Part shown: in pieces, positions 4,741-63,803 of the stretch | Layout of the letters: the number at the start of each line of letters is the position of its first letter | Numbering within the stretch: position 1 is the stretch's first letter | Origin: Geopsychrobacteraceae bacterium | Lineage (GTDB): Bacteria; Desulfobacterota; Desulfuromonadia; Desulfuromonadales; Geopsychrobacteraceae | Length of the DNA: 64,000 nt | Direction: 5' to 3' | Assembly: GCA_963662315.1 (NCBI GenBank) | Contig: OY759353.1 | Span: 224,001 to 288,000, forward strand | Notes under the pieces: generated by a model | What the model was told of the DNA's origin: nothing | Seen by the model: only the letters and a program-made list of their open reading frames with translations | The model's database searches: none | Made by a program: the position numbers and the translations under genes

Positions 4741-7041
4741 ATGCAGATCAACTCAATGCAGGTGAAACTGCCATTGCTGATATTTTTCAGTTTTATGCTG
4801 ACCACGATTCTGGTCATTTTGATCGTTGAGCATAATATGTCTACGGTTATTACCCGCAGTCAGACCAGCGAATATGGGGAAAAGATAGAGATCATTCTGC
4901 GGGCTATTGATAATAAGTACGAGCGTCTACAAAAAACCGGAATGGTCGCTATTTACGAAGAGGATTTTCAGCAGTCGACATTGCGTCAGTTGCGCAGTTC
5001 CTACCGTCAATTTGCTAAATCGGGAGCGACGGTCTTCATCATGAATTCTGATGGTGAGCTGCTGTTACCTGCAAATGCCACATCCTTTCCGGTGGCGCCT
5101 GAAACACTGGCTGCTCAATTGCAGACTGGGGAAGCGGGTAGTGTTGATCTTCTGCAACAGGATGGGCAGCGGATTTGGTGCCATTTTCAAACCTTTGCCC
5201 CTTGGCGCTGGAAAGTAGGGTACCTGATTCCAGATGTTGTCCGAAATCAGATCATCTATCAACTCACCCATGCTTTAGTCGTTGTCTGCGGCTCGATCAC
5301 CCTTGTGGTTGTCTGTATTTTACTCTGGCTGATCAGGCGTCAGCTGTATCCCATCAGACAACTGACAGATATTTCTGCCGAGATGGCCCGGGGAAACCTG
5401 GATAAAAAAATTCACGTTGAACGCCATGACGAAATCGGTCATTTGGCAGATCATTTCAATCAAATGCAGGCGGCTATTGTCGATACAATTGAGTCGCTTA
5501 AGAGCAATGAAAAGAATCTGCAGACAATTCTTAATTCCATTGGCGATGCGGTCATTGCCACTGATGAGAATCACCATATTGTCCATTTCAATCCGGTCGC
5601 AGAGGCGTTGACCGGTTGGTCTAAAGCAGAAGCTATCGACCAACCGCTGGAGAATGTTCTGGTGATCGTCGATCCGAAAACGCACCAGTCCCTGCTGTCC
5701 ACCATTCGTGAAATCGGGACTTCTCCTCATAACATTGAGAAGGATGTGTTGGTTGTTTCGCGAGATCATCAGGAACGGCTGGTGGCCGACTCGGTGGCTC
5801 CAATCCATTTCGAGGGCGAACGGGTGACTGGAGCTGTCTGGGTATTTCGTGACGTTACCGAGGAAAGGGCGCTGCAGGAACAACTGTTTCAGAATCGCAA
5901 AATGGAAACCATCGGTCAGTTAGCAGGTGGGGTTGCCCATGATTTCAATAATATGATTGGTGGAATTTTGGGGGCGGCCGAGCTGCTTAAGATGCGACCG
6001 AGCAGCCAGCAGTCTGAAAAATACGTGGATATGATTATCAGCGCCGGTGAAAGGGCTGCAGGACTGACCTCGAAACTATTAGCTTTTGCCCGTAAACAGA
6101 ATATCAGCTCAACTCCTGTCGATGCCGATCTGTCTTTGCGCAGCGCCCTGGAATTGCTGGAACGGACGATTGATCCTCGGATTCGGATTGTACGCCAGAT
6201 CCATACGGCATCGAGCCGGGTCATCGGAGATTTTACCCAGCTGGAAAATGTTTTTCTCAACCTGCTGATTAATGCCGCCCAAGCCATGCCTGCCGGTGGT
6301 GACCTGACAGTGACAACCAGGGTTACTGAGCTTGACAGTCAATACTGCCGTGCGAGCTCTTTTCCTATTGAACCAGGCACTTTCCTTGAGGTCGAAATCC
6401 GTGATACCGGGTGTGGCATCGCTCGCGAAAATATGCCTCATATATTTGAGCCCTTTTTTACCACGAAACCGCAGGGCAGCGGCACCGGACTTGGCCTGGC
6501 AGAGGTGTTGGGAACCGTTCAATCTCATATGGGTGAGGTTTCGGTCAACAGTGATCCCGGTGTGGGGACCGTATTTACTGTTTTCCTGCCGATTTCCCAA
6601 GTATCGATAACATCCAAGCCCTCCGTGCTCAAACCGTTGTCGGGGGCAGGTAAAATTCTGGTTGTTGATGATGAAGGGGTGATGCGGGTTACCGCCACTG
6701 CGATTCTCATTGAATTGGGCTACCAGGTGTTATCCGCAGATAACGGTAAAGCTGCCATTGAGCTGTTTCGTGATCATCATGAGGACATTGACCTCGTTCT
6801 GCTTGATATGATCATGCCGGAAATGAGTGGGCGTGACTGTTTCTACCAAATGAAACAGATTCAACCTGATGTCCGTATTGTTCTGTCCTCGGGTTTTACC
6901 CGAAGAGAAGAAATTGCAGATCTGCGCGCCAACCAGCTGACCGGATTTATCCGTAAGCCGTATCGGGCTGCCATTTTAAGTCAGGTGGTTGCGGTAGCCT
7001 TGACCGGTAATCTGGGCGAAGATATTTTGTGGGACTCTTGA
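4741..7041 (+). CDS. Hybrid sensor histidine kinase (TM-HAMP-PAS-HisKA-HATPase-REC)
   Basis: HAMP (HDEIGHLADHFN), PAS (SIGDAVIATD), H-box GGVAHDFNN, FEPFFTTK, GTGLGL, receiver LVVDDE...LLDMIMP. Confidence 0.93.
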   Translation: MQINSMQVKLPLLIFFSFMLTTILVILIVEHNMSTVITRSQTSEYGEKIEIILRAIDNKYERLQKTGMVAIYEEDFQQSTLRQLRSSYRQFAKSGATVFIMNSDGELLLPANATSFPVAPETLAAQLQTGEAGSVDLLQQDGQRIWCHFQTFAPWRWKVGYLIPDVVRNQIIYQLTHALVVVCGSITLVVVCILLWLIRRQLYPIRQLTDISAEMARGNLDKKIHVERHDEIGHLADHFNQMQAAIVDTIESLKSNEKNLQTILNSIGDAVIATDENHHIVHFNPVAEALTGWSKAEAIDQPLENVLVIVDPKTHQSLLSTIREIGTSPHNIEKDVLVVSRDHQERLVADSVAPIHFEGERVTGAVWVFRDVTEERALQEQLFQNRKMETIGQLAGGVAHDFNNMIGGILGAAELLKMRPSSQQSEKYVDMIISAGERAAGLTSKLLAFARKQNISSTPVDADLSLRSALELLERTIDPRIRIVRQIHTASSRVIGDFTQLENVFLNLLINAAQAMPAGGDLTVTTRVTELDSQYCRASSFPIEPGTFLEVEIRDTGCGIARENMPHIFEPFFTTKPQGSGTGLGLAEVLGTVQSHMGEVSVNSDPGVGTVFTVFLPISQVSITSKPSVLKPLSGAGKILVVDDEGVMRVTATAILIELGYQVLSADNGKAAIELFRDHHEDIDLVLLDMIMPEMSGRDCFYQMKQIQPDVRIVLSSGFTRREEIADLRANQLTGFIRKPYRAAILSQVVAVALTGNLGEDILWDS

Positions 7042-7295
7042 ACGCGTTACTCGTCCTTTAAATCCATCCCCCCATGAATAGGCGGAATCTGACCTGCCAG
7101 GCAGTGAAGCTTATTAAGCAGTGCCCAAAAGTAACCAATTTTTGATTCAAATTCCATGAGATAGATGCGTAAGAGATTTTTGACCGGAGATCTGAAGTCA
7201 AGAGCATCTCTTATGCTGGATGCACTTAACTAGTAGTGCTGAATTGAAATTGTAAAGAGGGTTAAAGTCTAGGCTCCGGTTGATCCATTGCAGAA

Positions 7296-7335
7296 ATAAC
7301 CAAAAGTTATGGATTTAGCGAGAACATATATTAGC
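7296..7335 (+). promoter_or_regulatory. Operator-like motif copy 1 (LysR-type), upstream of the cyclase pair
   Basis: ATAAC-CAAAA-GTTAT-GGA...TATTAG; dyad fits the T-N11-A LysR box and recurs at 9421, 17591 and 20433. Confidence 0.7.
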
Positions 7336-13721: not shown

Positions 13722-13791
13722 AGGGGATGGCCGATGACATAGTTGTCGCCATGATCCAGAGTTAAAATTTTTTATATGGATAGGAGAAAAC

Positions 13792-15252
13792 ATGGAATTG
13801 CTCAGTACGTATGGATCTTTCATTAACGGATCATTTGTCGAAAAAACGACAGAAAAAATTATTTCCGATTATAACCCCACAAATGGCGAACTTTTGGCCC
13901 AGCTGATGACCGCGGATGTTGACTGTTTGGAGGATGCCGTCACCAGCTCTCAAAATGCATTAAAAGAATGGCGAAAGACGACCAAAGCCTATAGAGCAAA
14001 AGTACTGAACGAGATGGCTGATATCGTGGATGCGAATGCTTCTTTTCTGGCAGAAATTGAGGCGCGCGACGTTGGCAAACCCATTGGAGAAGCAACAATG
14101 CAAATGGGTATGTGCAGTTCCATGTATCGTTACTTTGCAGCGGCGATTATTGCCGAAGATGATATTCTTGTAAGCCATGATAATGGCAGCATTTCCGCAG
14201 TCGTGCGCGAACCTCTCGGCGTTGTCGGCCTGATTTTGCCATGGAATGCACCGGCCATGCTGCTGTCCTGGAAACTGGCTCCAGCACTGGCAACTGGGAA
14301 TTGTGTCATCATTAAGCCGGCAACCGCGGCTCCTCTGGTAATCCTTGAATTGGCCAGATTGTGGAAGGATGTCATTCCTGCCGGGGTACTGAATGTTCTC
14401 ATTGGCAGCGCCGTAGGTGAACCCATGCTGCACCACCCCGGCATTTCTAAGTTTTCATTTACCGGATCGACAGAAGTCGGAAGTCATATTGGCGAAGTTG
14501 CGGGAAGAAACATTGTCCCCTGTACTTTGGAGCTGGGTGGAAAATCGGCAAATATTATTTTCGAAGATGCCCAGTTGGATCGCGCTTTACAGCTTTCTAT
14601 CCTAGGGGTTTTGGCCTCCAATGGTGAAGTGTGTGTCGCTGGCTCTCGTCTTTTTGTGCATGAGAGCATCTATGATTCCTTTTTGGAAAAATTAAAGGAA
14701 AAGTTCGAATCGATCACTGTTGGCGATCCAACTAAATACGAGACTCAAATGGGACCAGCGGTTAATGAAGGTCAAATGAAGAGTGTTCTCGAGTATATTG
14801 AAATCGGTAAAAGCGAGGGGGCAAGGTTGGTATGTGGTGGTAAGCGCTTAACGGGTGGCGATTATGATAAAGGTTATTTTATTGCTCCGACCATTTTTGC
14901 CGATGTGGATAATACCATGCGAATTGCACGTGAGGAAATCTTTGGACCTGTTTTGACTGTGCTGAAGTTTAAAACAGAAGAAGACGTCATTAAAATGGCT
15001 AATGATTCAGATTATGGGCTTGGAGCCGGGGTTTGGACAACAAATCTTAGTCGTGCCATGAGGGTTTCACGTGCTTTGGACGCTGGTACGGTCTGGGTTA
15101 ATGATTACCTGACCTCAACACCAGGAAATCCTTTTGGTGGCTATAAAAAATCCGGTATCGGTAGAGAGATTCATAAACTTGCGATGCAGTATTACACCAA
15201 TGTCAAAAACATCTGCTTTTGTGGTGACGAAGGTGTTCCGCCAATCTTTTAA
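13792..15252 (+). CDS. NAD(P)-dependent aldehyde dehydrogenase
   Basis: PWNAP, FTGSTEVG, LELGGKS, GEVCVAG (catalytic Cys), EEIFGPV. Confidence 0.95.
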   Translation: MELLSTYGSFINGSFVEKTTEKIISDYNPTNGELLAQLMTADVDCLEDAVTSSQNALKEWRKTTKAYRAKVLNEMADIVDANASFLAEIEARDVGKPIGEATMQMGMCSSMYRYFAAAIIAEDDILVSHDNGSISAVVREPLGVVGLILPWNAPAMLLSWKLAPALATGNCVIIKPATAAPLVILELARLWKDVIPAGVLNVLIGSAVGEPMLHHPGISKFSFTGSTEVGSHIGEVAGRNIVPCTLELGGKSANIIFEDAQLDRALQLSILGVLASNGEVCVAGSRLFVHESIYDSFLEKLKEKFESITVGDPTKYETQMGPAVNEGQMKSVLEYIEIGKSEGARLVCGGKRLTGGDYDKGYFIAPTIFADVDNTMRIAREEIFGPVLTVLKFKTEEDVIKMANDSDYGLGAGVWTTNLSRAMRVSRALDAGTVWVNDYLTSTPGNPFGGYKKSGIGREIHKLAMQYYTNVKNICFCGDEGVPPIF

Positions 15253-15338: not shown

Positions 15339-16541
15339 ATGCGTAATGTTGTCATAGTAGAGGCCTGCCGTACTGCGGTAGGTAAATTCGGGGGAACACT
15401 CAAACCACTGCAGGCGGAAGACCTTGCTCTTGCCGTTATGAAGGGGGCACTTGAGCGCAGTGGTTTAGACCCAAAAGAAATCGACGAAGTTGTTATTGGG
15501 CAGTGCCGTCAGTCTTCCGATAGCTCCAATATCGCGCGTGTTGCGGCTTTACGCGCTGGTATTCCTGAAGAGACGCCTGCCAATACCGTTATGTGTGCTT
15601 GTGCTTCCGGCATGCTGGCTGCCAACAATGCCGCCAACTCCATTATGGTTGGACAGAATGATGTTGTCCTTGCCGGCGGTACCGAGCATATGACCAATGG
15701 CATTTTTTATTTAAGCAATGCCCGGTGGGGAGTGGGCACCGGCAGTACCGAATTTAAGGATTGCCTGACCGAGGCGCAATTCACATCGCAGCCGCAGGAC
15801 CTTTATGGTCGATTCAATATGGGGATGACGGCGGAGAATGTCGCCGAGAAGATGGGCATTTCCCGGGAAGATCAGGATGCCTTTGCAGTGCTGTCGCAAG
15901 AGCGAGCAGCGAAAGCAATTGCCGATGGGCGTTTTAAGGATGAAATCATTCCTCTTAGCGTGCCTCAAGGCCGCAAGCAGGATTCTGTTATTTTCGACAC
16001 CGACGAATTTCCTAGGCTTTCATCTCTGGCGGCCCTGGCTAAGTTGAAACCAGCGTTTAAAAAGGATGGTTGTGTCACAGCGGGCAATGCCTCCGGCCGT
16101 AACGATGGCGCTTCCATTTTATTGATGATGGCTGCGGACAAAGCCGCTGCGCTCGGCATGAAGCCGCTGGCCAAAGTTCGTGCCATTGCCGCCGCTGGTG
16201 TTGACCCACGTTATATGGGGATAGGTCCCGTTCCGGCCACCAGAAAGGCTCTACAGATGGCTGGACTTAGCCTGGATGATGTCGAACTTATTGAGCTTAA
16301 TGAGGCCTTCGCAGCCCAGTCTCTTGGCTGCATCCGAGAACTCGGTCTCGATCATAAAATGGATATCATTAATGTCAATGGAGGAGCCATTGCTCTAGGT
16401 CATCCGATTGGTTCTTCTGGTAGCCGGATTATGGTGAGCTTAATCCATGAGATGCGTAAACGGCATTTGAATATAGGCCTGGCCACCCTCTGTATTGCTG
16501 GAGGTATGGGGATGGCTGCTGTCTTGGAGACGACCTGTTAA
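15339..16541 (+). CDS. Acetyl-CoA C-acyltransferase (thiolase)
   Basis: [29 protein letters not shown]. Confidence 0.95.
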
Positions 16542-17590: not shown

Positions 17591-17630
17591 ATAACAAAAA
17601 GTTATGGATTTGGAGAAAACTTGTATTAGC
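17591..17630 (+). promoter_or_regulatory. Operator-like motif copy 3, in the divergent lysR/thiolase promoter
   Basis: ATAAC-AAAAA-GTTAT-GGA...TATTAG; the classic position for LysR autoregulation. Confidence 0.75.
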
Positions 17631-20432: not shown

Positions 20433-20472
20433 ATAACCAAAAGATATGGACTTGGTGGAAAGTTGTATTAGT
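20433..20472 (+). promoter_or_regulatory. Operator-like motif copy 4, upstream of the cupin-HAD-BKACE-SDR operon
   Basis: ATAAC-CAAAA-GATAT-GGA...TATTAG with the same spacing. Confidence 0.7.
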
Positions 20473-26662: not shown

Positions 26663-26800
26663 TTAGGTTTGCTCAGTATCTTCAGGCTCAGAAGGTTGTA
26701 AGCCCTGTTCATTTTTGCGATTTTTTTTCTCTTCCTTTTTGGCTTTTTTGGCTATTTCTTTTTGCCGTTTTTCAAATCCGTAATTTGTTTTTCTTGCCAT
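26663..26800 (-). CDS. Small Lys/Glu-rich protein (45 aa)
   Basis: Hand translation MARKTNYGFEKRQKEIAKKAKKEEKKNRKNEQGLQPSEPEDTEQT; AAGGA upstream; same strand as flanking csp and rhlE. Below the ORF-track cutoff. Confidence 0.7.
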   Translation of the reverse strand: MARKTNYGFEKRQKEIAKKAKKEEKKNRKNEQGLQPSEPEDTEQT

Positions 26801-50164: not shown

Positions 50165-50678
50165 GCCGGGTCCCGGCCCGGCAGCCCACGCTGCTGTCGC
50201 AGCTAATGGGCAAGAGCGCTAGTTGAGAGACAGGCTGCCGTGGGTCTATCGGTTTTCGTTACTAAACCCATCATCAATAAATAATACGGTTCTGGCCATC
50301 AGGCGGGGGTGAGCCGTCAGGCCGGCTGGTAAATTGCTGGTTGTCTCTTGGTGCCCAACGACGCCCGAACACGGACATATTAAAGAGGGCTTTTTGTGCT
50401 TACTATTTTTAGCCTGATTGTGAAAAATAGTAAGGCGCAGTGTGGGGGCGCGACCCCGTGACTTTGATATGGTTTTGACCGTTTCGTTCCAATCAATAAA
50501 GTCTTAAGGTCGCCGGGTCCCGGCCCGGCAGCCGGGTTCATTTTTCCCAGCGATGGAAAAACGAACCAAAAAGATCTTTGAAGGTCAAACACACTGACGA
50601 TAGGTGTATGGGACTACGTTTCAACGTTACAGGGTGAAATTAACCGGCAGCCCACGCTGCTGACGCAGCTAACGGGCA
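50165..50678 (+). repeat. Structured repeat element, cluster 1: internally deleted copy (50165-50459), linker, 5' partial copy (50512-50678)
   Basis: Long blocks identical to the 60.6-63.0 kb array, e.g. GCCGGGTCCCGGCCCGGCAGCCGGGTTCATTTTTCCCAGCGATGGAAAAACGAACCAAAAAGATC. Confidence 0.95.
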
Positions 50679-50749
50679 GGTTTTATTAGGGGAGAATTGT
50701 GACTTTTGGCTTTCTGTTGCTGCGTGTTACTTAAGTCTTTAAGTATTCA

Positions 50750-51235
50750 CTATTTAATTTTCAGTTCATCCCGTAGCGCTCTTCTTGCCGCTTTATCAAC
50801 CAAGCGAAAGATCTGATCGGGCAAAGTCCGTTGCGCCGCTGGGAGGTGTCCGCACCGTTTACAGAACTCCAGCTGATAGTTATCCAGTTGCTCGAAAAAT
50901 TCCCGATAGAGATCAGCATTATTCAGCGGTCGCCCCAGGCGTGAGCAAAAATGTTTTTCCTCTAGACTCCGGCGGCGTTGTGGCAGTTCGCAGATGGTTT
51001 GGGAATCGCAGTGGATGGTCAGTTGGGCTCCAGGGGGAACGAATTCCTGTAGTGCCCAGAGCAGAGTCTGCATTTCCAGTCGGGCCGCAGTGGTTTGCGC
51101 AAAAGGTTTGACGCGAATCTGACTGATCATGTCTTCTAGAGATGTCTGGTCCGAACTGATCAGCAGGCAGGCGCCGTAGCCGATACCGGTTGTGGGGTCG
51201 GCGCTACCGTCACAGAAGAGTTGCAGTTCTGCCAT
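50750..51235 (-). CDS. Ribonuclease HI-like protein
   Basis: FCDGS, RLEMQ, HCDSQ, NADLY, GH, LVDKAA: the four acidic catalytic positions appear present. Confidence 0.8.
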   Translation of the reverse strand: MAELQLFCDGSADPTTGIGYGACLLISSDQTSLEDMISQIRVKPFAQTTAARLEMQTLLWALQEFVPPGAQLTIHCDSQTICELPQRRRSLEEKHFCSRLGRPLNNADLYREFFEQLDNYQLEFCKRCGHLPAAQRTLPDQIFRLVDKAARRALRDELKIK

Positions 51236-51251
51236 GGTGGTCTGCTGATGA

Positions 51252-51479
51252 TCAGTCGGGGTGATTGCGGAAGGCGATGTACAGATCTTCGACCTGACGC
51301 CTGGCCCAGGGGGTACGGCGCAGAAATTTCAGGCTTGATTTGACCGATGGGTCGTTATTGAAACAGCGGATCTGGATGATTTGCCCCAGTTCTTCCCAGC
51401 CGTAGTAGTCAGAAAGATCGGTGACAATGCGTTCCAAGGTGATACCGTGCAACGGGTCTTTGTTTTGTTGGTCGGCCAT
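51252..51479 (-). CDS. Small DNA-binding protein, VF530/DUF2132-like
   Basis: DPLHGITLE...YGWEELG...[27 protein letters not shown] family pattern. Confidence 0.85.
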
Positions 51480-51617
51480 GCGTGGTGAATCCTTTTTGGG
51501 TAAGTGTCGCTGGAGTTTAGGTGGTTTTTTGGGTTGGATGCAAGGGTAAAACGGCAATGGGCGTGGGTTGGACGTTTCAGTGTGGTTCTATTGATTCATC
51601 AAGACAACATCAAGACC

Positions 51618-52248
51618 GCCGGGTCCCGGCCCTGCAGCCGGGTTCATTTTTCCCAGCGATGGAAAAACGAACCAAAAAGATCTTTGAAGGTCAAACACAC
51701 TGACGATAGGTGTATGGGACTACGTTTCAACGTTACAGGGTGAAATTAACCGGCAGCCCACGCTGCTTCGCAGCTAACGGGCAAGAGTGCTTGTTGATAG
51801 GTATACTGTCCTGGGTCTATCGGTTTTCGTTATTAACCCATCATCAATAAATAATGCGGTTCTGGCCATCAGGCGCGATTTGAGCCGTCAGGCCGGCTGG
51901 TTAATTGCTGGTTGTCTCTTTGTGTCCAACGACGCCCGAACACGGACATATAAAAAGGGCTTTTTGTGCTTACTATTTTTAGCCTGATTGTGAAAAATAG
52001 TAAGGCACAGTGTGGGGGCGCAACCCCACGACTTTGATATGATTTTGACTGTTTCATTTCAATCAATAAAGTCTTAAGACCGCCGGGTCCCGGCCCGGCA
52101 GCCGGGTTCATTTTTCCCAGCGATGGAAAAACGAACCAAAAAGATCTTGTAAGGTCAAGGTAACTGACGATAGCTGTGTTGGACTACGTTTGAACATTGC
52201 AGGGTGCAACTAACTGGCAGCCCACGCTGCTATCGCAGCTAACGGGCA
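51618..52248 (+). repeat. Structured repeat element, cluster 2: full copy (51618-52029), linker, 5' partial copy (52082-52248)
   Basis: Same conserved blocks as clusters 1 and 3; start-to-start distance 464 bp. Confidence 0.95.
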
Positions 52249-52352
52249 AAGGGCTGTAGAGGAGAATTATTGTGCTGCTGGCTTTACGGGTTGTTGCTAC
52301 TGAATGCTTAATAGTATTAACTAGTTAAAGAGATGTTTTAAACGGACAAGTA

Positions 52353-59470: not shown

Positions 59471-60526
59471 GTGATGGGAACAAAGTTCAATTCTGAAGAG
59501 AACTCACAGGATACTTTTCCAGACGCATATGAGCAGATGAAGCAAATGCTGCTTGAGCAGGAAGAAACGATCAAAGCTCTTGAACAGGCGGTTGGCGATG
59601 CCGGCAACCAGCAGTTGACAGCTGAATTTGAAAGTCTGGAAATGCATCAGATCCTTTCAGCAACGGCTGATCCGATCTGGGCCGTTCGTGATGATGGTAT
59701 TGTTATCCGCGCCAATCAGGCCATGCTGGATTTGCTGGGCAAAGATGAGTTCGAGGTTATCGGACAGCGCTGCTCAGATCTGATCAATTTTAGCTGTTGT
59801 CAAGGGGAGGATTGTCCCCTTAAAAACATTAAAAAACGGCAAAGGCATGAAATCGAGCTGTTTTTTAATGGTGAATACTACAGTCTGCTCTCTTCTCCTC
59901 TGATCACCATTGTGGGTACCGAAGCTGTCGTTGGTCATTTCAGAAATATCACCTTTCGTAAACAGACTGAGCAGCAGCTTGAAATGTTGAATAAAAAACT
60001 CGCTGCCGCAGCAAATATTGACGGGCTGACCCAGATTGCCAATCGGCGCTCTTTTAATGAAACTTTTGAGCGCGAATGGTTGCGCCATAAGCGTAATAAA
60101 ATGACTCTGTCGCTGGTCCTGATCGATATCGACTTCTTTAAAAAATATAATGATTACTATGGTCATTCCTCTGGGGATGATTGCCTTATCAAGGTAGCTT
60201 CCGCCTTACAGTCTGCCGTGAAACGGCCAGTCGATCTGGCCGCAAGGTATGGCGGTGAGGAATTTGTTGTGCTGCTGCCGGAAACGCCGATAGAAGGGGC
60301 CATTTGTGTCGCCGAGCGTATTGCAGAGGCTATCGCCGCGCTGCGTATTGAGCATCATGAATCAGAGGTTTTTGACCATGTGACGGTCAGCCAGGGGGCG
60401 GCTTCAATTGATCCTGATGGCGAGCTGAAAGCAGTCAGGCTGATTGAGATGGCTGATGAGGCTCTGTATGCGGCAAAAGAGCGCGGGCGGAATTGTTATG
60501 TGGATTATCATACGCTTAACCCTTGA
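59471..60526 (+). CDS. PAS-domain diguanylate cyclase
   Basis: PAS (IRANQAMLDLLG), DGLTQIANRR, RPVD I-site, RYGGEEF. Confidence 0.92.
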   Translation: MMGTKFNSEENSQDTFPDAYEQMKQMLLEQEETIKALEQAVGDAGNQQLTAEFESLEMHQILSATADPIWAVRDDGIVIRANQAMLDLLGKDEFEVIGQRCSDLINFSCCQGEDCPLKNIKKRQRHEIELFFNGEYYSLLSSPLITIVGTEAVVGHFRNITFRKQTEQQLEMLNKKLAAAANIDGLTQIANRRSFNETFEREWLRHKRNKMTLSLVLIDIDFFKKYNDYYGHSSGDDCLIKVASALQSAVKRPVDLAARYGGEEFVVLLPETPIEGAICVAERIAEAIAALRIEHHESEVFDHVTVSQGAASIDPDGELKAVRLIEMADEALYAAKERGRNCYVDYHTLNP

Positions 60527-60583
60527 GTTTTTGATTTCTCCTGTGTGCGATTGCGCTCATCACATCTTCTCTTCTTAGTTTAA

Positions 60584-60625
60584 AAAAACAATACTGCCGG
60601 GTCCTTGCCCGGCAGTATTGTTTTT
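60584..60625. terminator. Bidirectional terminator-like hairpin at the left edge of the array
   Basis: AAAAACAATACTGCCGGG-TCCTTG-CCCGGCAGTATTGTTTTT, 18-bp perfect stem. Confidence 0.8.
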
Positions 60626-60633
60626 CACTACTA

Positions 60634-63001
60634 AAACCCATCATCCATCAATAATGCGGTTCTGGCCATCAGGCGGGTTTGAGCCGTCAGGCCGGTCAGT
60701 CAATTGCTGGTTGCCTCTTGACGAACAACGACGCCCGAACACGGACATATGAAAAGGGCTTTTTGTGCTTACTATTTTTAGCCTGATTGTGAAAAATAGT
60801 AAGGCGCAGTGCGTGGGCGCGACCCCGTGACTTTGCTTGTCTCATTCCATCAATAAAGTCTTAAAACCACCGGGTCCCGGCCCGGCAGCCGGGTTCATTT
60901 TTCCCAGCGATGGAAAAACGAACCAAAAAGATCTTGCAAGGTCAAGGTAACTGACGATAGTCGTGTGGGACTACGTTTCAACGTTGCGAGGTGGAATGAA
61001 CCGGAAGCCCACGCTGCTGTCGCAGCTAACGGGCAAAAGGCGCTAGTTGATTGGCGGACTGCTGTGGGTCTATCGATTTTCGCTCCTAAACCCATCATCA
61101 ATAAATAATACGGTTCTGGCCATCAGGCGGGGGTGAGCCGTCAGGCCGGTCAGTCAATTTCTGGCTGTTTCTTGAAAAACAACGACGCCCGAACACGGAC
61201 ATATTAAAGAGGGCTTTTTGTGCTTACTATTTTTAGCCTGATTGTGAAAAATAGTAAGGCGCAGTGCGGGGGCGCAACACCGCGACTTTGCTTGTTTCTT
61301 TCAAATCATAAAAGACAAAGTCGCCGGGTCCCGGCCCGGCAGCCGGGTTCATTTTTCCCAGCGATGGAAAAACGAACCAAAAAGATCTTGTAAGGTCAAG
61401 GTAACTGACGATAGCTGTGTTGGGCTACGTTTGAACGTTGCAGGATGCAACTAACTGGCAGCCCACGCTGCTTCGCAGCTAACGGGCAAAAGGCGTTAGC
61501 TGATTGGCGGACTGCTGTGGGTCTATCGATTTTCGCTCCTAAACCCATCATCTATCAATAATGCGGTTCTGGCCATCAGGCGGGTTTGAGCCGTCAGGCC
61601 GGCTGGTCAATTTCTGGTTGCTTCTTGACGCACAACGACGCCCGAACACGGACATATTAAAGAGGGCTTTTTGTGCTTACTATTTTTAGCTTGATTGTGA
61701 AAAATAGTAAGGCGCAGTGCGGGGGCGCAACACCGCGACTTTGCATGTTTCTTTCAAATCATAAAAGACAAAGTCGCCGGGTCCCGGCCCGGCAGCCGGG
61801 TTCATTTTTCCCAGCGATGGAAAAACGAACCAAAAAGATCTTGTAAGGTCAAGTACACTGACGATAGCTGTGTTGGACTACGTTTGAACGTTGCAGAATG
61901 TACAATTAAGCGGCAGCCCACGCTGCTGTCGCAGCTAATGGGCAAGGGCGTTAGCTGGAAGACGAAGCATAGAGTTTCTATCGGTTTTCGCTCCTAAACC
62001 CATCATCAATAAATAATACGGTTCTGGCCATCAGGCGTGATCTGAGCCGTCAGGCCGGCTGTTCAATTTCTGGCTGTTTCTTGAAAAACAACGACGCCCG
62101 AACACGGACATATTAAAGAGGGCTTTTTGTGCTTACTATTTTTAGCTTGATTGTGAAAAATAGTAAGGCGCAGTACGGGGGCGCGACCCCGTGACTTTGC
62201 TTGTCTCATTCCATCAATAAAGTTTTAAGACCGCCGGGTCCCGGCCCGGCAGCCGGGTTCATTTTTCCCAGCGATGGAAAAACGAACCAAAAAGATCTTG
62301 TAAGGTCAAGGTAACTGACGATAGCTGTGTTGGACTACGTTTGAACATTGCAGGATGCAATTAAGCGGCAGCCCACGCTGCTGTCGCAGCTAACGGGCAA
62401 AAGGCGCTAGTTGATTGGCGGACTGCTGTGGGTCTATCGATTTTCGCTCCTAAACCCATCATCAATAAATAATACGGTTCTGGCCATCAGGCGTGATCTG
62501 AGCCGTCAGGCCGGCTGGTCAATTTCTGGTTGCTTCTTGACGCACAACGACGCCCGAACACGGACATATTAAAGAGGGCTTTTTGTGCTTACTATTTTTA
62601 GCTTGATTGTGAAAAATAGTAAGGCGCAGTGCGGGGGCGCGACCCCGTGACTTTGTTTGTCTCATTCCATCAATAAAGTCTTAAGACCGCCGGGTCCCGG
62701 CCCGGCAGCCGGGTTCATTTTTCCCAGCGATGGAAAAACGAACCAAAAAGATCTTTGAAGGTCAAGGTAACTGACGATAACAGTGAAGGGCTACGTTTGA
62801 ACGTTGCGAGGTGGAATGAACCGGCAGCCCACGCTGCTTCGCAGCTAACGGGCAAGGACGTTAGTTGGAAGACGAAGTATAGAGTTTCTATCGATTTTCG
62901 CTCCTAAACCCACCATCAATAAATAATACGGTCCTGGCCATCAGGCGGGTTTGAGCCGTCAGGCCGGCCATTCAATTGCTGGTTGCCTCTTAAATCACAA
63001 C
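60634..63001 (+). repeat. Tandem array of the structured element, ~455-bp period, about 5.2 units
   Basis: The CCGGGTCCCGGCCCGGC anchor recurs at 60870, 61324, 61777, 62234 and 62690 (periods 454, 453, 457, 456). No conserved long ORF. Confidence 0.97.
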
Positions 63002-63119
63002 AAAACCTAAGCGTGACCGCTTCCGGCAGGAAAAATTAAATGCTGAAAATATTGATAAACAAAGGTACTTTAATTGAGTATTCAATAATCAGCTGTGAAA
63101 ACCAAAAAGGAGTAGCATA

Positions 63120-63803
63120 TTGGCTCTGGACACACACAAGTATTATGCTGCAATTACCGGAGATGTGATCAACTCTTCTGCATTTAATGATAGCAATCGC
63201 GATCTGCTGCATGATTCCATCCAGAAAGTAGGTGCAGAGGTTTACAAGTTTTTCCCAGGGTTTCAGGTCGGGGATCTCTCTATCTTTCGGGGGGACAGTA
63301 TTCAATTTTTGCTTTCTGACCCAGTTGTCTCATTGCGTGTCGCACTGTTTTTCCGTGCCGCCTTTAAAGCGATCCTTCCGAAGCAGAAGGTTGATATGCG
63401 ATTGTCCATCGGGATAGGCACTGTCAGTTTTCTTCCCTCAACTGATCAAGGAGGTGCCGATGGGGAAGCGTACAGATTGTCAGGCGCCTCTTTGGATAAG
63501 CTTTCTGCAAAAGAGACCATGGCCATAAATGTTTCCAGTGAATGGGGAACAGATCTGCAGCGCAGGGCATTTCAGACAATCGCTGTTCTGCTTGGTTTTC
63601 AGGCCGGTGGCTGGACCAGTAAACAGGCGCTGGCAGTTAAATGGGGGATTTTGAATAAAACCCAAGAAGAAATCAGCCGACTCTGGCCTGAAACAGTGTC
63701 CAGGCAGGCCATTGCCAAAAACCTGGATGCGGCCGGCTTCTTTGCCGTTGAGCAGGGTTTGAGGTTTTTTGAGGAGAATAAATTTAACACTTGGCAACCT
63801 TGA
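63120..63803 (+). CDS. SatD-family protein
   Basis: YAAITGDVINSS, FRGDSIQ, RLSIGIG, DGEAYRLSG and a C-terminal HTH-like TQEEIS...VSRQAIAKNL; TTG start after AAGGAG. Confidence 0.78.
   Translation: MALDTHKYYAAITGDVINSSAFNDSNRDLLHDSIQKVGAEVYKFFPGFQVGDLSIFRGDSIQFLLSDPVVSLRVALFFRAAFKAILPKQKVDMRLSIGIGTVSFLPSTDQGGADGEAYRLSGASLDKLSAKETMAINVSSEWGTDLQRRAFQTIAVLLGFQAGGWTSKQALAVKWGILNKTQEEISRLWPETVSRQAIAKNLDAAGFFAVEQGLRFFEENKFNTWQP

Follow-up and report, generated by a model that had tools for sequence, protein, structure and literature searches.

What kind of element is the non-coding, hairpin-dense repeat that lies head to tail near one end of a 64,000-nucleotide stretch of DNA from a Geopsychrobacteraceae bacterium (contig OY759353.1; this whole stretch is called the window below, and position 1 is its first letter)? 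The original prediction described about 5.2 tandem units of ~455 bp. Tandem Repeats Finder reports a single array that bears this out, spanning positions 60622-62991 with a period of 456, 5.2 copies, 89% matches, 1% indels and a score of 3619. The absence of a conserved open reading frame (ORF) from the unit also holds. The ORFs inside the array code for 50-68 amino acids and differ between subfamilies of the repeat, whose loop lengths differ by 4-6 nucleotides and thereby shift the reading frame. Two ORFs of 57 codons at 61220 and 61673, each preceded by a GAGGG motif, were set aside for this reason. A short ORF adjoining some arrays seemed conserved in two loci and is broken by a one-nucleotide indel in a third; the conserved feature at these places is a DNA palindrome.

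The concern that the array is an assembly artefact can be answered in part. At its edges (60200-60672 and 62939-63300), contigs from four public sequencing runs enter from both flanks with zero differences, and copy-specific pieces of 83-144 nucleotides are matched exactly by short-read contigs from public runs. Read depth over the array is many-fold higher than over the flanks. None of the short-read contigs from the four runs bridges the whole array, and the figure of 5.2 copies is that of the assembly and is unconfirmed.

The 455-bp unit is not a single element. It is composed of two distant homologues of a module of ~170-205 nucleotides, hereafter E, placed in opposite orientations. Its order is type A (E on the minus strand), linker1 (44 or 70-74 nucleotides), type B (E on the plus strand) and linker2 (7-19 nucleotides), and the full copies listed in the original prediction (60869-61283 and so on) correspond to A, linker1 and B. 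In nhmmer searches, the B profile matches A sites over their full length on the opposite strand, and a covariance model trained on type B modules only (R1) likewise recognizes the A sites in reverse orientation, with scores of 29-73 bits. An alignment of the two types reveals an architecture common to both, and each module ends in its own terminator-like hairpin, with the 3' ends facing linker2. The earlier statement that all copies lie on the same strand is correct for the 455-bp unit, but within the unit there are two inverted homologous halves. Because of register shifts, MAFFT and RNAalifold recover only 21 pairs from pooled A and B modules, and a hand-placed structure and covariance model were used instead. 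The short ORF and palindrome mentioned above adjoin terminal type A modules.

In the nhmmer map, the window array is a run of 11 modules in which B and A alternate, with B at both ends. The five full type B copies, all on the plus strand, are located at 60656-60857 (196 bits with nhmmer, 185.5 bits with R1), 61111-61316 (R1, 197.8 bits), 61563-61769 (R1, 197.1 bits), 62019-62221 (R1, 200 bits) and 62475-62677 (R1, 201.3 bits), and the last module is a truncated type B at 62929-63015 on the same strand, which covers profile positions 2-88. The five type A copies, with E on the minus strand, occupy 60870-61036 (163 bits on the plus strand with the A profile), 61324-61489 (R1 match at 61299-61493 on the minus strand, 45.9 bits), 61777-61945 (R1 match at 61752-61949 on the minus strand, 42.6 bits), 62234-62400 and 62690-62855. 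A second cluster at 50179-52249, detected by both nhmmer and R1, contains about 2.5 units. It begins with an A fragment (50179-50213), a B module (50287-50502) and an A module (50513-50678), continues with a two-gene insert, and ends with A (51619-51784), B (51856-52072) and A (52083-52249).

Each E module consists of a lineage-variable 5' domain (P1-P4) and a 3' core that is conserved throughout the order. From 5' to 3', the predicted core starts with a short strand, a, and the U-rich loop L1. Next comes P5, an A/U-rich hairpin of 12 bp with a loop that pairs with a, followed by two interleaved GC stems, H1 and H2, and finally by a tail rich in U. In the third type B copy, chosen as the representative, the structure placed on our alignment and the covariation of each helix assign 61569-61617 of the plus strand to the 5' domain, with P1 at 61569-61574/61597-61602, P2 at 61579-61581/61590-61592 and P3 at 61603-61606/61614-61617. 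The P4 hairpin follows at 61640-61653 and has five positions, the second of which is an unpaired C.A, and a four-nucleotide loop.

Evidence for covariation is extensive. Changes on both sides are seen in 33 of the 40 modelled pairs. Paired cells amount to 88.6% versus 72.0% in shuffles and 39-48% with the partner slid, and the covariation score is 0.351 versus 0.118, with 0 of 500 shuffles reaching the higher value; these alignments were fitted to the structure model, which biases the pairing figures in its favor. H2 is 95.6% paired, and H1, which is absent from the model, is 90.9% paired versus 69.9% when shuffled. The stems named in the original prediction are all present, and each corresponds to a covarying helix. 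In paired columns there are 292 G-U cells versus 76 A-C cells, and the consensus fold favors the plus strand for type B (-89.6 versus -77.6) and the minus strand for type A (-82.0 versus -76.7). On this comparative evidence, the predicted fold of E is well supported and strand-specific.

The core has the characteristics predicted for a pseudoknot that might include a triple helix. In the representative module this region spans 61664-61711 on the plus strand, with strand a at 61664-61668, L1 at 61669-61675, the loop strand a' at 61688-61692, and P5, which is 99% paired, at 61676-61687/61700-61711. The best a-a' helix averages 4.51 versus 3.70±0.09 with permuted partners, and a-a' forms a compensatory series across families. 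The length of the L1 U-run correlates with that of the P5 A-run (r=0.83, n=65, from a handful of independent subfamilies and with kinship ignored). A C precedes the U-run in 18 of the 21 rows with a G before the A-run, compared with 8 of the 21 rows with a C at that place. The best parallel run of U.A and C.G matches scores 5.17 with a module's own partner, 4.54±0.06 with permuted partners and 3.43±0.10 with shuffled L1. By class, a parallel third strand fits better in 14 cases, worse in 9 and equally well in 35.

Thus, U-rich L1 tracks the P5 A/G run as expected of a major-groove triple helix, for which E is a candidate. As in known triple-helix H-type pseudoknots, the predicted architecture has interleaved covarying stems, namely stem 1 (a-a') and stem 2 (P5), and a U-rich loop 1 whose pyrimidines match, and may run parallel to, the purine strand of stem 2. 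Covariation between U-run and A-run is likewise a property of this topology, which is also comparable to that of telomerase RNA and ENE elements. E differs from such RNAs in having no Rfam match, a stem 2 of 12 bp, and a second, GC-rich knot followed by a terminator-like tail. The L3 loop of the a-a'/P5 pseudoknot is only 2-7 nucleotides and the loops of the H1/H2 knot are very short; the two knots could be alternative folds that do not form simultaneously.

The 3' end of E resembles a transcription terminator. In the representative module, the two interleaved GC stems occupy 61712-61737 on the plus strand (H1 at 61712-61715/61725-61728, H2 at 61718-61722/61733-61737), and the U-rich tail 3' of H2 extends from 61738 to 61760. 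Equivalent sites at 60812, 62174 and 62630 were flagged as terminator-like. Altogether, 23 such sites are located between 60500 and 63150, at module 3' ends, versus 3.5±2.2 expected from shuffles, and their GC-rich hairpins followed by U-tracts are as predicted for intrinsic (Rho-independent) terminators. At 64 of 98 array ends, the outermost E points in the same direction as its neighboring ORF (p=0.003); with duplicate flanks removed, the figure is 58 of 91 (p=0.011). With crude ORF calls, 13 of the 49 arrays in the genome lie between divergent genes, which equals the chance expectation and does not fit a pure 3'-end element. The genes that flank arrays show no relation to each other, and downstream of many modules there is no gene at all. 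An RNase H-like gene that adjoins arrays in three species was considered as a partner of E, and simple synteny explains its position. Array orientation is independent of the replichores (origin at ~3.0 Mb, terminus at ~0.75 Mb).

The genome holds about 130 copies of E in its 49 arrays, with 66 matches on the plus strand and 65 on the minus strand. Arrays range from 1 to 11 modules, and both solo modules and odd numbers of modules occur. Inverted neighbors are present in 9 of 9 loci examined from other genera. Within Desulfuromonadales, the covariance model finds matches in 123 of 151 genomes, representing 56 of 64 genera and 26 of 27 families, and it finds none in 150 genomes of the same phylum outside the order. 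Arrays occupy the same intergenic positions in a species with only 67% DNA identity in the orthologue of the gene downstream of the array. In trees, loci interleave within subfamilies. Young subfamilies are found at many scattered loci, solo copies of older date have diverged, and three arrays (44, 45 and 47) mix subfamilies. The scatter of young subfamilies and the mixed arrays suggest that units spread and land beside existing units. This route of array growth, with unequal recombination altering copy number, is partly shown.

Known families do not account for E. Rfam 15 gives no match at the gathering threshold across the window, and its nine weak matches at E<=10 are to unrelated families (best E 0.8). 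Nor is E a CRISPR, short REP, attC, tRNA or rRNA sequence, none of which the original prediction could match to the unit. The triple-helix riboswitches SAM-II, SAM-V and preQ1-II are likewise without an Rfam match, and the copy number of E, the frequent lack of a downstream gene and the unrelated flanking genes make for a poor fit to a riboswitch. A group II intron identity was also rejected. No unit of the window array has such a match, and Rfam group-II-D1D4 matches adjoin arrays on the minus strand, with a single fragment (L036:16405-16512) overlapping the last ~40 nucleotides of the final type B module of an array in the chromosomal integron.

The organization of E, by comparison, is familiar. 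The BIMEs, REP doublets and REPINs of gamma-proteobacteria, like E, are intergenic and very abundant, alternate in orientation with few linker types, and form variable tandem clusters, and the sites of both persist over long periods. The array in the window is a BIME-like cluster of structured intergenic modules whose family is specific to one order. Other repeats dispersed through intergenic DNA, ~100-200 nucleotides long, likewise have predicted RNA folds that are conserved and are built as mosaics or from modules; these are bcr1 in the Bacillus cereus group, ERIC, BOX, and Correia/NIME in Neisseria. E is restricted to another order, and neither terminal inverted repeats nor target duplications could be seen in it. 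To our knowledge, pseudoknot or triple-helix signals have never been reported for those four families.

The individual module is quite different from a REP. A REP is a single hairpin of 20-40 bp with a GTAG or CGTC tag, whereas E has 170-205 nucleotides, at least seven helices and two knot-like motifs; its H2 is a 6-bp GC stem, and no such tag or tail was seen by eye. In contrast to RAYT-associated REPs, E neither flanks nor depends on Y1 genes. A REPIN is reported to be formed by two REPs in inverted orientation around a spacer (PMC3337134), and REPs have been proposed to act in termination and mRNA stabilization (PMC3733652). REPs are reported mainly from between unidirectional and convergent ORFs, whereas E is found between divergent genes at the chance rate given above.

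A relative of E is present in Pelobacter carbinolicus, presumably a member of the same order as the source organism. It appears in a 2012 supplement to the genome paper of that species as the 'multicopy nucleotide sequences' Pcar_R1001-R1028 (PMC3543383, Additional file 2), comprising 28 rows of ~230 nucleotides, some of them in tandem. The core follows the same order as in E. Strand a is followed by an L1 rich in U and C, then by an A/G-rich hairpin of 12-13 bp with a loop complementary to strand a; a double hairpin of GC pairs and a tail rich in T complete it. In the published alignment, L1 sequences UUUCUCU, UUUUUCU and UUUUCU accompany AAAGAGA, AAAAAGA and AAAAGA, respectively. The 5' domain differs from that of E and is GC-rich, and the tandem copies Pcar_R1001-R1004 lie on one strand with a ~308-nucleotide period, whereas E modules alternate. 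Passages of that paper on 'multicopy' sequences give alignment and locations only and propose no structure or function. Other multicopy families are reported in the Geobacter metallireducens genome paper, and a paper on intrastrand triplexes (PMC4666352) concerns a G/C-rich motif. The suggestion that the repeat is undescribed therefore stands in that no account of the fold was found in the literature searched, some of it in excerpt, and fails in that a related family was already on record, uninterpreted.

We favor the explanation that E is a cis-acting RNA module serving in termination or in the protection of 3' ends, and that the array is a BIME-like cluster of it; to this we assign a probability of roughly 45%. 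E would act as RNA, in cis, on the strand that folds, and would be transcribed together with neighboring genes or next to them. H2 and the U-rich tail would stop transcription. L1 would lie in the major groove of the a-a'/P5 pseudoknot as U.A-U and C.G-C triples and, together with the H1/H2 knot, create a compact 3' end. Such an end could protect the RNA from 3' exonucleases, insulate neighboring genes, or do both, and inverted pairs of E would extend the effect to both directions. A bolder version, which we consider doubtful though worth stating, is that E is without precedent in bacteria, being a dispersed RNA module that propagates itself and has a triple-helix pseudoknot core fused to a knotted terminator. 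It would serve as a portable 3'-end cap that ends transcription and guards RNA termini, in the way that ENE-type triple helices act on viral, long non-coding and transposon RNAs in eukaryotes, and would have been kept throughout the history of the order at tens to more than 100 copies per genome.

An unlikely competitor holds that each E is an independent small-RNA gene of ~200 nucleotides. A, linker1 and B would then constitute a divergent pair with back-to-back promoters in the 70-74-nucleotide linker and with a terminator for each gene, and the RNAs would act in trans, for instance through a conserved P3 loop or a protein partner. The strand-specific fold and the separate terminators suit this explanation, linker1 at 70-74 nucleotides is about long enough for two such promoters, and arrays are found in every kind of intergenic region. 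Moreover, ~40 nucleotides upstream of type B are conserved in three species and end in TATCAATAAT 2-3 nucleotides before the module. However, consensus promoters do not exceed chance (two sigma-70 sites versus 3.1 expected), and no sigma-54 spacing was seen by eye in the flanks of arrays. Many modules are directly preceded by a small hairpin and a T-run. The lack of a consistent promoter counts against our favored explanation as well. Eleven linkers have just 44 nucleotides and are made of this terminator-like hairpin, and old solo copies carry it directly upstream in place of a promoter-like stretch. The bias toward co-orientation with genes would be unexpected for autonomous genes, and we know of no small-RNA family whose numbers approach ~130 copies per genome.

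We also judge it improbable, to a similar degree, that E is a selfish element at the DNA level. In this case E would be a non-autonomous REPIN- or MITE-like sequence whose folded single strand is recognized by an HUH Y1 transposase, an IS110-type enzyme, an integron integrase or another enzyme, with the structure serving mobility. The distribution of subfamilies described above is as expected for such an element, and the inverted pairs resemble REP doublets. Arrays occur both within the chromosomal integron and in islands where IS elements, Y1 genes and remnants of group II introns are also found. A strand-specific fold suits single-stranded DNA as well, and the G-U strand bias and a T.A-T triplex could be equally compatible with DNA instead of RNA.

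Co-occurrence with HUH/Y1 genes, raised in the original prediction, failed as a clue. The Y1 genes near arrays (76-86 bits on NF047646) are flanked by their own unrelated 23-bp inverted ends and have varied insertion points. In addition, 12 of the 14 Y1-negative genomes of the order still carry E, which led us to reject HUH/Y1 (RAYT) as the mobilizer, and one of these genomes (G188) has 117 E matches and no Y1 candidate. The TnpB domain PF07282 has no match in the 99.9% complete genome, and Rfam gives no HEARO or IS605-type match in the window, so a TnpB guide RNA or a non-autonomous IS200/IS605 element was likewise discarded. With respect to a MITE, A and B are long, diverged inverted arms, and no A...B pair encloses a gene. 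No target duplications or terminal inverted repeats were seen at the 49 array ends, and plasmid and phage collections hold no E match in a distant-mode blastn search. A DNA element would also leave the U-rich tail and the co-orientation with genes without a role, and would have to contend with the same intergenic sites being filled in a species as distant as the one noted above.

Two further explanations are very improbable. The original prediction proposed one structured RNA of ~410-455 nucleotides transcribed as a head-to-tail concatemer, or a rolling-circle unit. This accords with the regular tandem period, and the unit is indeed hairpin-dense, non-coding and multicopy. However, the functional unit is not ~410-455 nucleotides but two opposed ~200-nucleotide modules, each with its own terminator-like 3' end, which also occur solo and in odd numbers, and no HUH dependence was found; read-through of the array would alternate sense and antisense modules, making a concatemer or rolling-circle product unlikely. 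The units are equally unlikely to be integron cassettes that lack an ORF, or attC sites of excessive size, which an integron integrase has duplicated: the genome does carry a true integrase (TIGR02249, 480.7 bits versus a cut-off of 265), and one B-A-B-A-B array sits among its cassettes, immediately behind an attC-like site, but most arrays lie far from the integron, E modules alternate in orientation whereas attC sites within one array (57-141 bp) share a single one, and the unit boundaries show by eye no paired cores (R'' ending in AAC, R' starting with GTT) like the xxCTAAC and GTTAGxx of the integron's canonical attC of ~105 bp.

Most repeats dispersed through intergenic DNA are short hairpins, and the case for their function is made from where they lie. 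E is unlike these in being a module of ~200 nucleotides for which comparison supports seven helices, a pair of knot-like motifs and, possibly, a triple helix in the major groove. If E does act as RNA, it would be a terminator or RNA-stability module that is natural, compact and probably portable, and a rare bacterial triple helix outside of riboswitches. If it acts instead as DNA, it would have a route of spreading in which the REP-linked HUH enzymes are not needed. Either way, the family merits an Rfam covariance model, with which annotators of Desulfuromonadales could mask about 130 loci in each genome where spurious small ORFs are now called.

Tandem Repeats Finder reports one array at 60622-62991, with a period of 456, 5.2 copies and 89% matches. 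This agrees with the original prediction of a head-to-tail array of a ~455-bp, hairpin-dense, non-coding unit, and the stems named there are present in the array sequence. The array ORFs are 50-68 aa long and are not retained from one subfamily to another, since the loops differ by 4-6 nt in length, consistent with the predicted absence of a conserved ORF. The Rfam search that had been suggested matched no family at gathering score across the whole window, and at E<=10 the array gave nine weak matches, all to unrelated families. An assembly artefact had also been considered. Contigs from four public runs enter the array from both flanks with no differences, and copy-specific pieces are also present. 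Therefore, the array is not an obvious artefact, but its length rests on the assembly because none of the contigs from these runs bridges it.

The unit had been viewed as a single element, and this part of the prediction does not hold. In the 4.71-Mb genome, BLAST with the 455-bp unit returned 94 pieces grouped into 28 clusters, often with the two halves of the unit apart. Profiles of the half-units (A, unit positions 1-170; B, positions 241-450) located 60 A and 66 B modules. Type A sites are matched over their whole length by the B profile on the opposite strand, B aligned to reverse-complemented A gives one common architecture, and R1, a covariance model from type B only, scores type A sites at 29-73 bits on the opposite strand. 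A joint A+B profile found 131 modules, 66 on the plus strand and 65 on the minus strand. These sequence comparisons show that a single module of ~170-205 nt, termed E, occurs twice in the unit, once in each orientation. The layout is A (E read on the minus strand), linker1 (44 nt in 11 cases or 70-74 nt in 22 cases), B (E read on the plus strand) and linker2 (7-19 nt). The genome carries 49 arrays, each with 1 to 11 modules.

R1 was built after helices had been placed on 31 aligned type B modules, which came from five species. In the R1 alignment of 96 matches (19 sources; 13 genomes, including that of the window), 88.6% of cells are paired versus 72.0% when shuffled and 39-48% after sliding the partner, both sides vary in 33 of 40 pairs, and the covariation score is 0.351 versus 0.118 when shuffled, although fitting of the alignment to the model biases these figures in its favour. 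H1, a helix outside the model, is 90.9% paired versus 69.9% shuffled and 19-61% slid. Paired columns contain 292 G-U cells versus 76 A-C cells, and consensus folding prefers the plus strand for B and the minus strand for A. Therefore, the structure is that of a single strand, either RNA or single-stranded DNA. The fold of E is real and strand-specific.

The part of E that is conserved beyond the genus is the 3' ~80-100 nt. From 5' to 3', this core includes a 5-6-nt strand (a), a U-rich segment (L1), a 12-bp A/U-rich hairpin (P5), the interleaved GC stems H1 and H2, and a U-rich tail. Strand a is matched by a complementary stretch, a', at the start of the P5 loop, and the two vary in compensatory series across families (e.g. 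GGGCU/AGCCU, GGGCG/CGCCC, GGCCA/UGGCC, AAGCCA/UGGCUU), and the mean best a-a' helix is 4.51 versus 3.70+-0.09 with permuted partners. Together, a-a' and P5 are predicted to give an H-type pseudoknot, and L1 would then have to follow the P5 major groove, parallel to the purine strand. U-run length in L1 correlates with A-run length in the P5 purine strand (r=0.83, n=65; U-run/A-run pairs 5/5 x23, 4/4 x15, 3/3 x7), and a C precedes the U-run where a G precedes the A-run in 18 of 21 rows. The best parallel U.A or C.G run is 5.17 for an element's own partner, versus 4.54+-0.06 when partners are permuted and 3.43+-0.10 when L1 is shuffled (71 unique rows, 13 genomes), and these triple-helix signals rest on a small number of independent lineages. 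Parallel orientation of the third strand is better in 14 classes, worse in 9 and tied in 35.

In the part of the Pelobacter carbinolicus genome paper covered here, published rows set L1 against the purine strand as UUUCUCU/AAAGAGA, UUUUUCU/AAAAAGA and UUUUCU/AAAAGA (PMC3543383). This mirror relation is what a pyrimidine-motif triple helix would need. The paired motifs could be alternative rather than simultaneous folds, given that some loops are short. H2 and the tail scan as an intrinsic terminator, with 23 sites in the array versus 3.5 expected. The core resembles triple-helix H-type pseudoknots, as far as the portions of their descriptions covered here extend, but E matches none of their models.

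Of 151 genomes sampled from the order (Desulfuromonadales), R1 matches 123, in 56 of 64 genera and in 26 of 27 families, and for many of them the match count is a lower bound. None of 150 genomes elsewhere in the phylum was matched, which also serves as a negative control for R1, and plasmid and phage collections gave no E match. Inverted neighbours occur in all nine loci drawn from other genera, other families carry arrays with a ~500-560-nt period, and P. carbinolicus has some tandem copies on one strand. In a congener with a gene DNA identity of only ~67%, arrays occupy the intergenic positions seen in the window, following the UDG gene and preceding the SatD-like gene. A sister family of E was printed in 2012 as the 'multicopy nucleotide sequences' Pcar_R1001-R1028, which carry no interpretation in the part of the paper covered (PMC3543383). 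Therefore, the repeat itself is not unseen, and 'undescribed' can be kept only for the inverted-homologue anatomy, order-wide distribution, covariation-supported knots and triple-helix signal, which were not found in the literature searched; further relatives may be listed in the Geobacter supplements and Pelobacter Table S1.

Trees of A and B modules include old, diverged copies that are mostly solo, and young subfamilies dispersed across numerous loci. Subfamilies are mixed within arrays 44, 45 and 47. Thus, units spread and come to lie next to units already in place, and their number changes locally.

Several genes near the arrays were considered as partners. The genome has 12 HUH Y1 genes that resemble REP-associated transposases, several of them beside arrays. 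Four copies of a 745-bp element (98-99% identical), at 3853031-3853775, 3855988-3856732, 3859634-3860319 and 3420170-3420913 of sequence C1 of the genome (G000), each carry such a gene between perfect 23-bp inverted ends and are inserted at differing points in or next to E arrays. One further Y1 copy has different ends. Of the 151 genomes of the order, 137 have Y1, and E is present in 12 of the 14 without it; one genome with no Y1 candidate has 117 E matches. The separate ends, varied insertion points and Y1-negative genomes argue against Y1 as the partner of E, and the proposed HUH/Y1 association is not supported. TnpB was not found in the genome. The array layout is like that of BIME or REPIN clusters in the portions of the sources covered, but E differs in the defining features of unit size, tag and RAYT association.

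At one locus of the same genome (L036), a B-A-B-A-B array at 15376-16446 lies inside an integron cassette array. The cassettes extend rightwards of a chromosomal integron integrase (G000:C1:2835995-2836939; L036 3992-4954, minus strand; TIGR02249, 480.7 bits) and have ~105-bp attC sites with cores xxCTAAC / GTTAGxx. By eye, E lacks the paired core sites of real attC, and it was rejected as such a site. A 347-aa ORF that by eye is IS110-family transposase-like (L036 7455-8498, minus strand) is inserted in an attC site, and its 330-bp flank (6919-7244) recurs 6.9 kb away at 13776-14102 with 99% identity and without the gene, resembling a deletion derivative. Minus-strand fragments of group II introns (Rfam group-II-D1D4-3, -1) and of reverse-transcriptase-like ORFs are found where E arrays end (L036 16405-16512 and 17667-17834; L037, a second locus, 1439-1734; G000:C1:1039065-1039421). 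One fragment overlaps the 3' end of a terminal E module, and there is no group II match inside the window-array units.

Other sequences adjoin the modules. In the window, a two-gene insert at 50750-51557 (minus strand), coding for RNase_H (PF00075, 33.6 bits) and VF530 (PF09905, 115 bits), takes the place of linker1, B and linker2 between two type A modules. An RNase H-like gene also adjoins E arrays in two congeners, which looks like synteny. Seven paralogous ORFs in G000:C1 (3854426-3855475, 3857662-3858798, 3863642-3864781, 4205504-4206673, 4209805-4210935 and 4211995-4213098, minus strand; 3991904-3992920, plus strand) share an N-terminal ~150-230 aa and are unrelated at the C-terminus; behind four of them lies a small ORF, which varies from locus to locus. 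The series resembles, by eye, polymorphic toxin / immunity cassettes. At six of these loci the start codon is 185-186 nt from a type A module. A conserved ~90-nt flank right of terminal type A modules (window 50680-50780, 52250-52340 and five other loci of the genome) holds the near-palindrome TTAACTAGTTAA / TATTCACTATTTAA, preceded by AGGAGAATT. Many type B modules have a small hairpin, AAAATGCC-N4-GGCATTTTT, directly on the 5' side (e.g. L036 15776-15801), with a 2-nt gap to the module in the 44-nt linker and in old solo copies; the window subfamily has, in its place, a conserved segment whose last bases are TATCAATAAT. In one congener (G042, loci L067/L068), the octamer GGTCCTTG occurs in runs of 4-7 copies directly 5' of several type A modules. 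Two window repeats are unrelated to E: a 23-nt tandem repeat of 2.8 copies at 26708-26772, and a three-copy 40-nt dispersed repeat with 75-100% identity at 7296-7335, 17591-17630 and 20433-20472.

The terminal E lies on the strand of the adjacent ORF at 64 of 98 array ends (p=0.003) and, once duplicate flanks are removed, at 58 of 91 (p=0.011), a modest bias based on crude ORF calls. This co-orientation, together with the strand specificity of the fold and a 3' end resembling a terminator, points to a cis-acting module at the RNA level. We therefore tentatively favour, at a probability of about 0.45, a reading of E as a candidate RNA terminator or stability module. However, arrays lie between divergent genes as often as expected by chance (13 of 49), and no consistent promoter was found at the modules. 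That the modules are instead independent small RNAs seems unlikely. Every structural signal of E could equally serve single-stranded DNA, and a DNA-level mobile element is likewise a doubtful reading; no autonomous version of E was found, no A...B pair encloses a gene, and no target duplications were seen at array ends. The remaining readings are each very improbable. As an RNA terminator or stability module, E would stop transcription and would form a protected 3' end.
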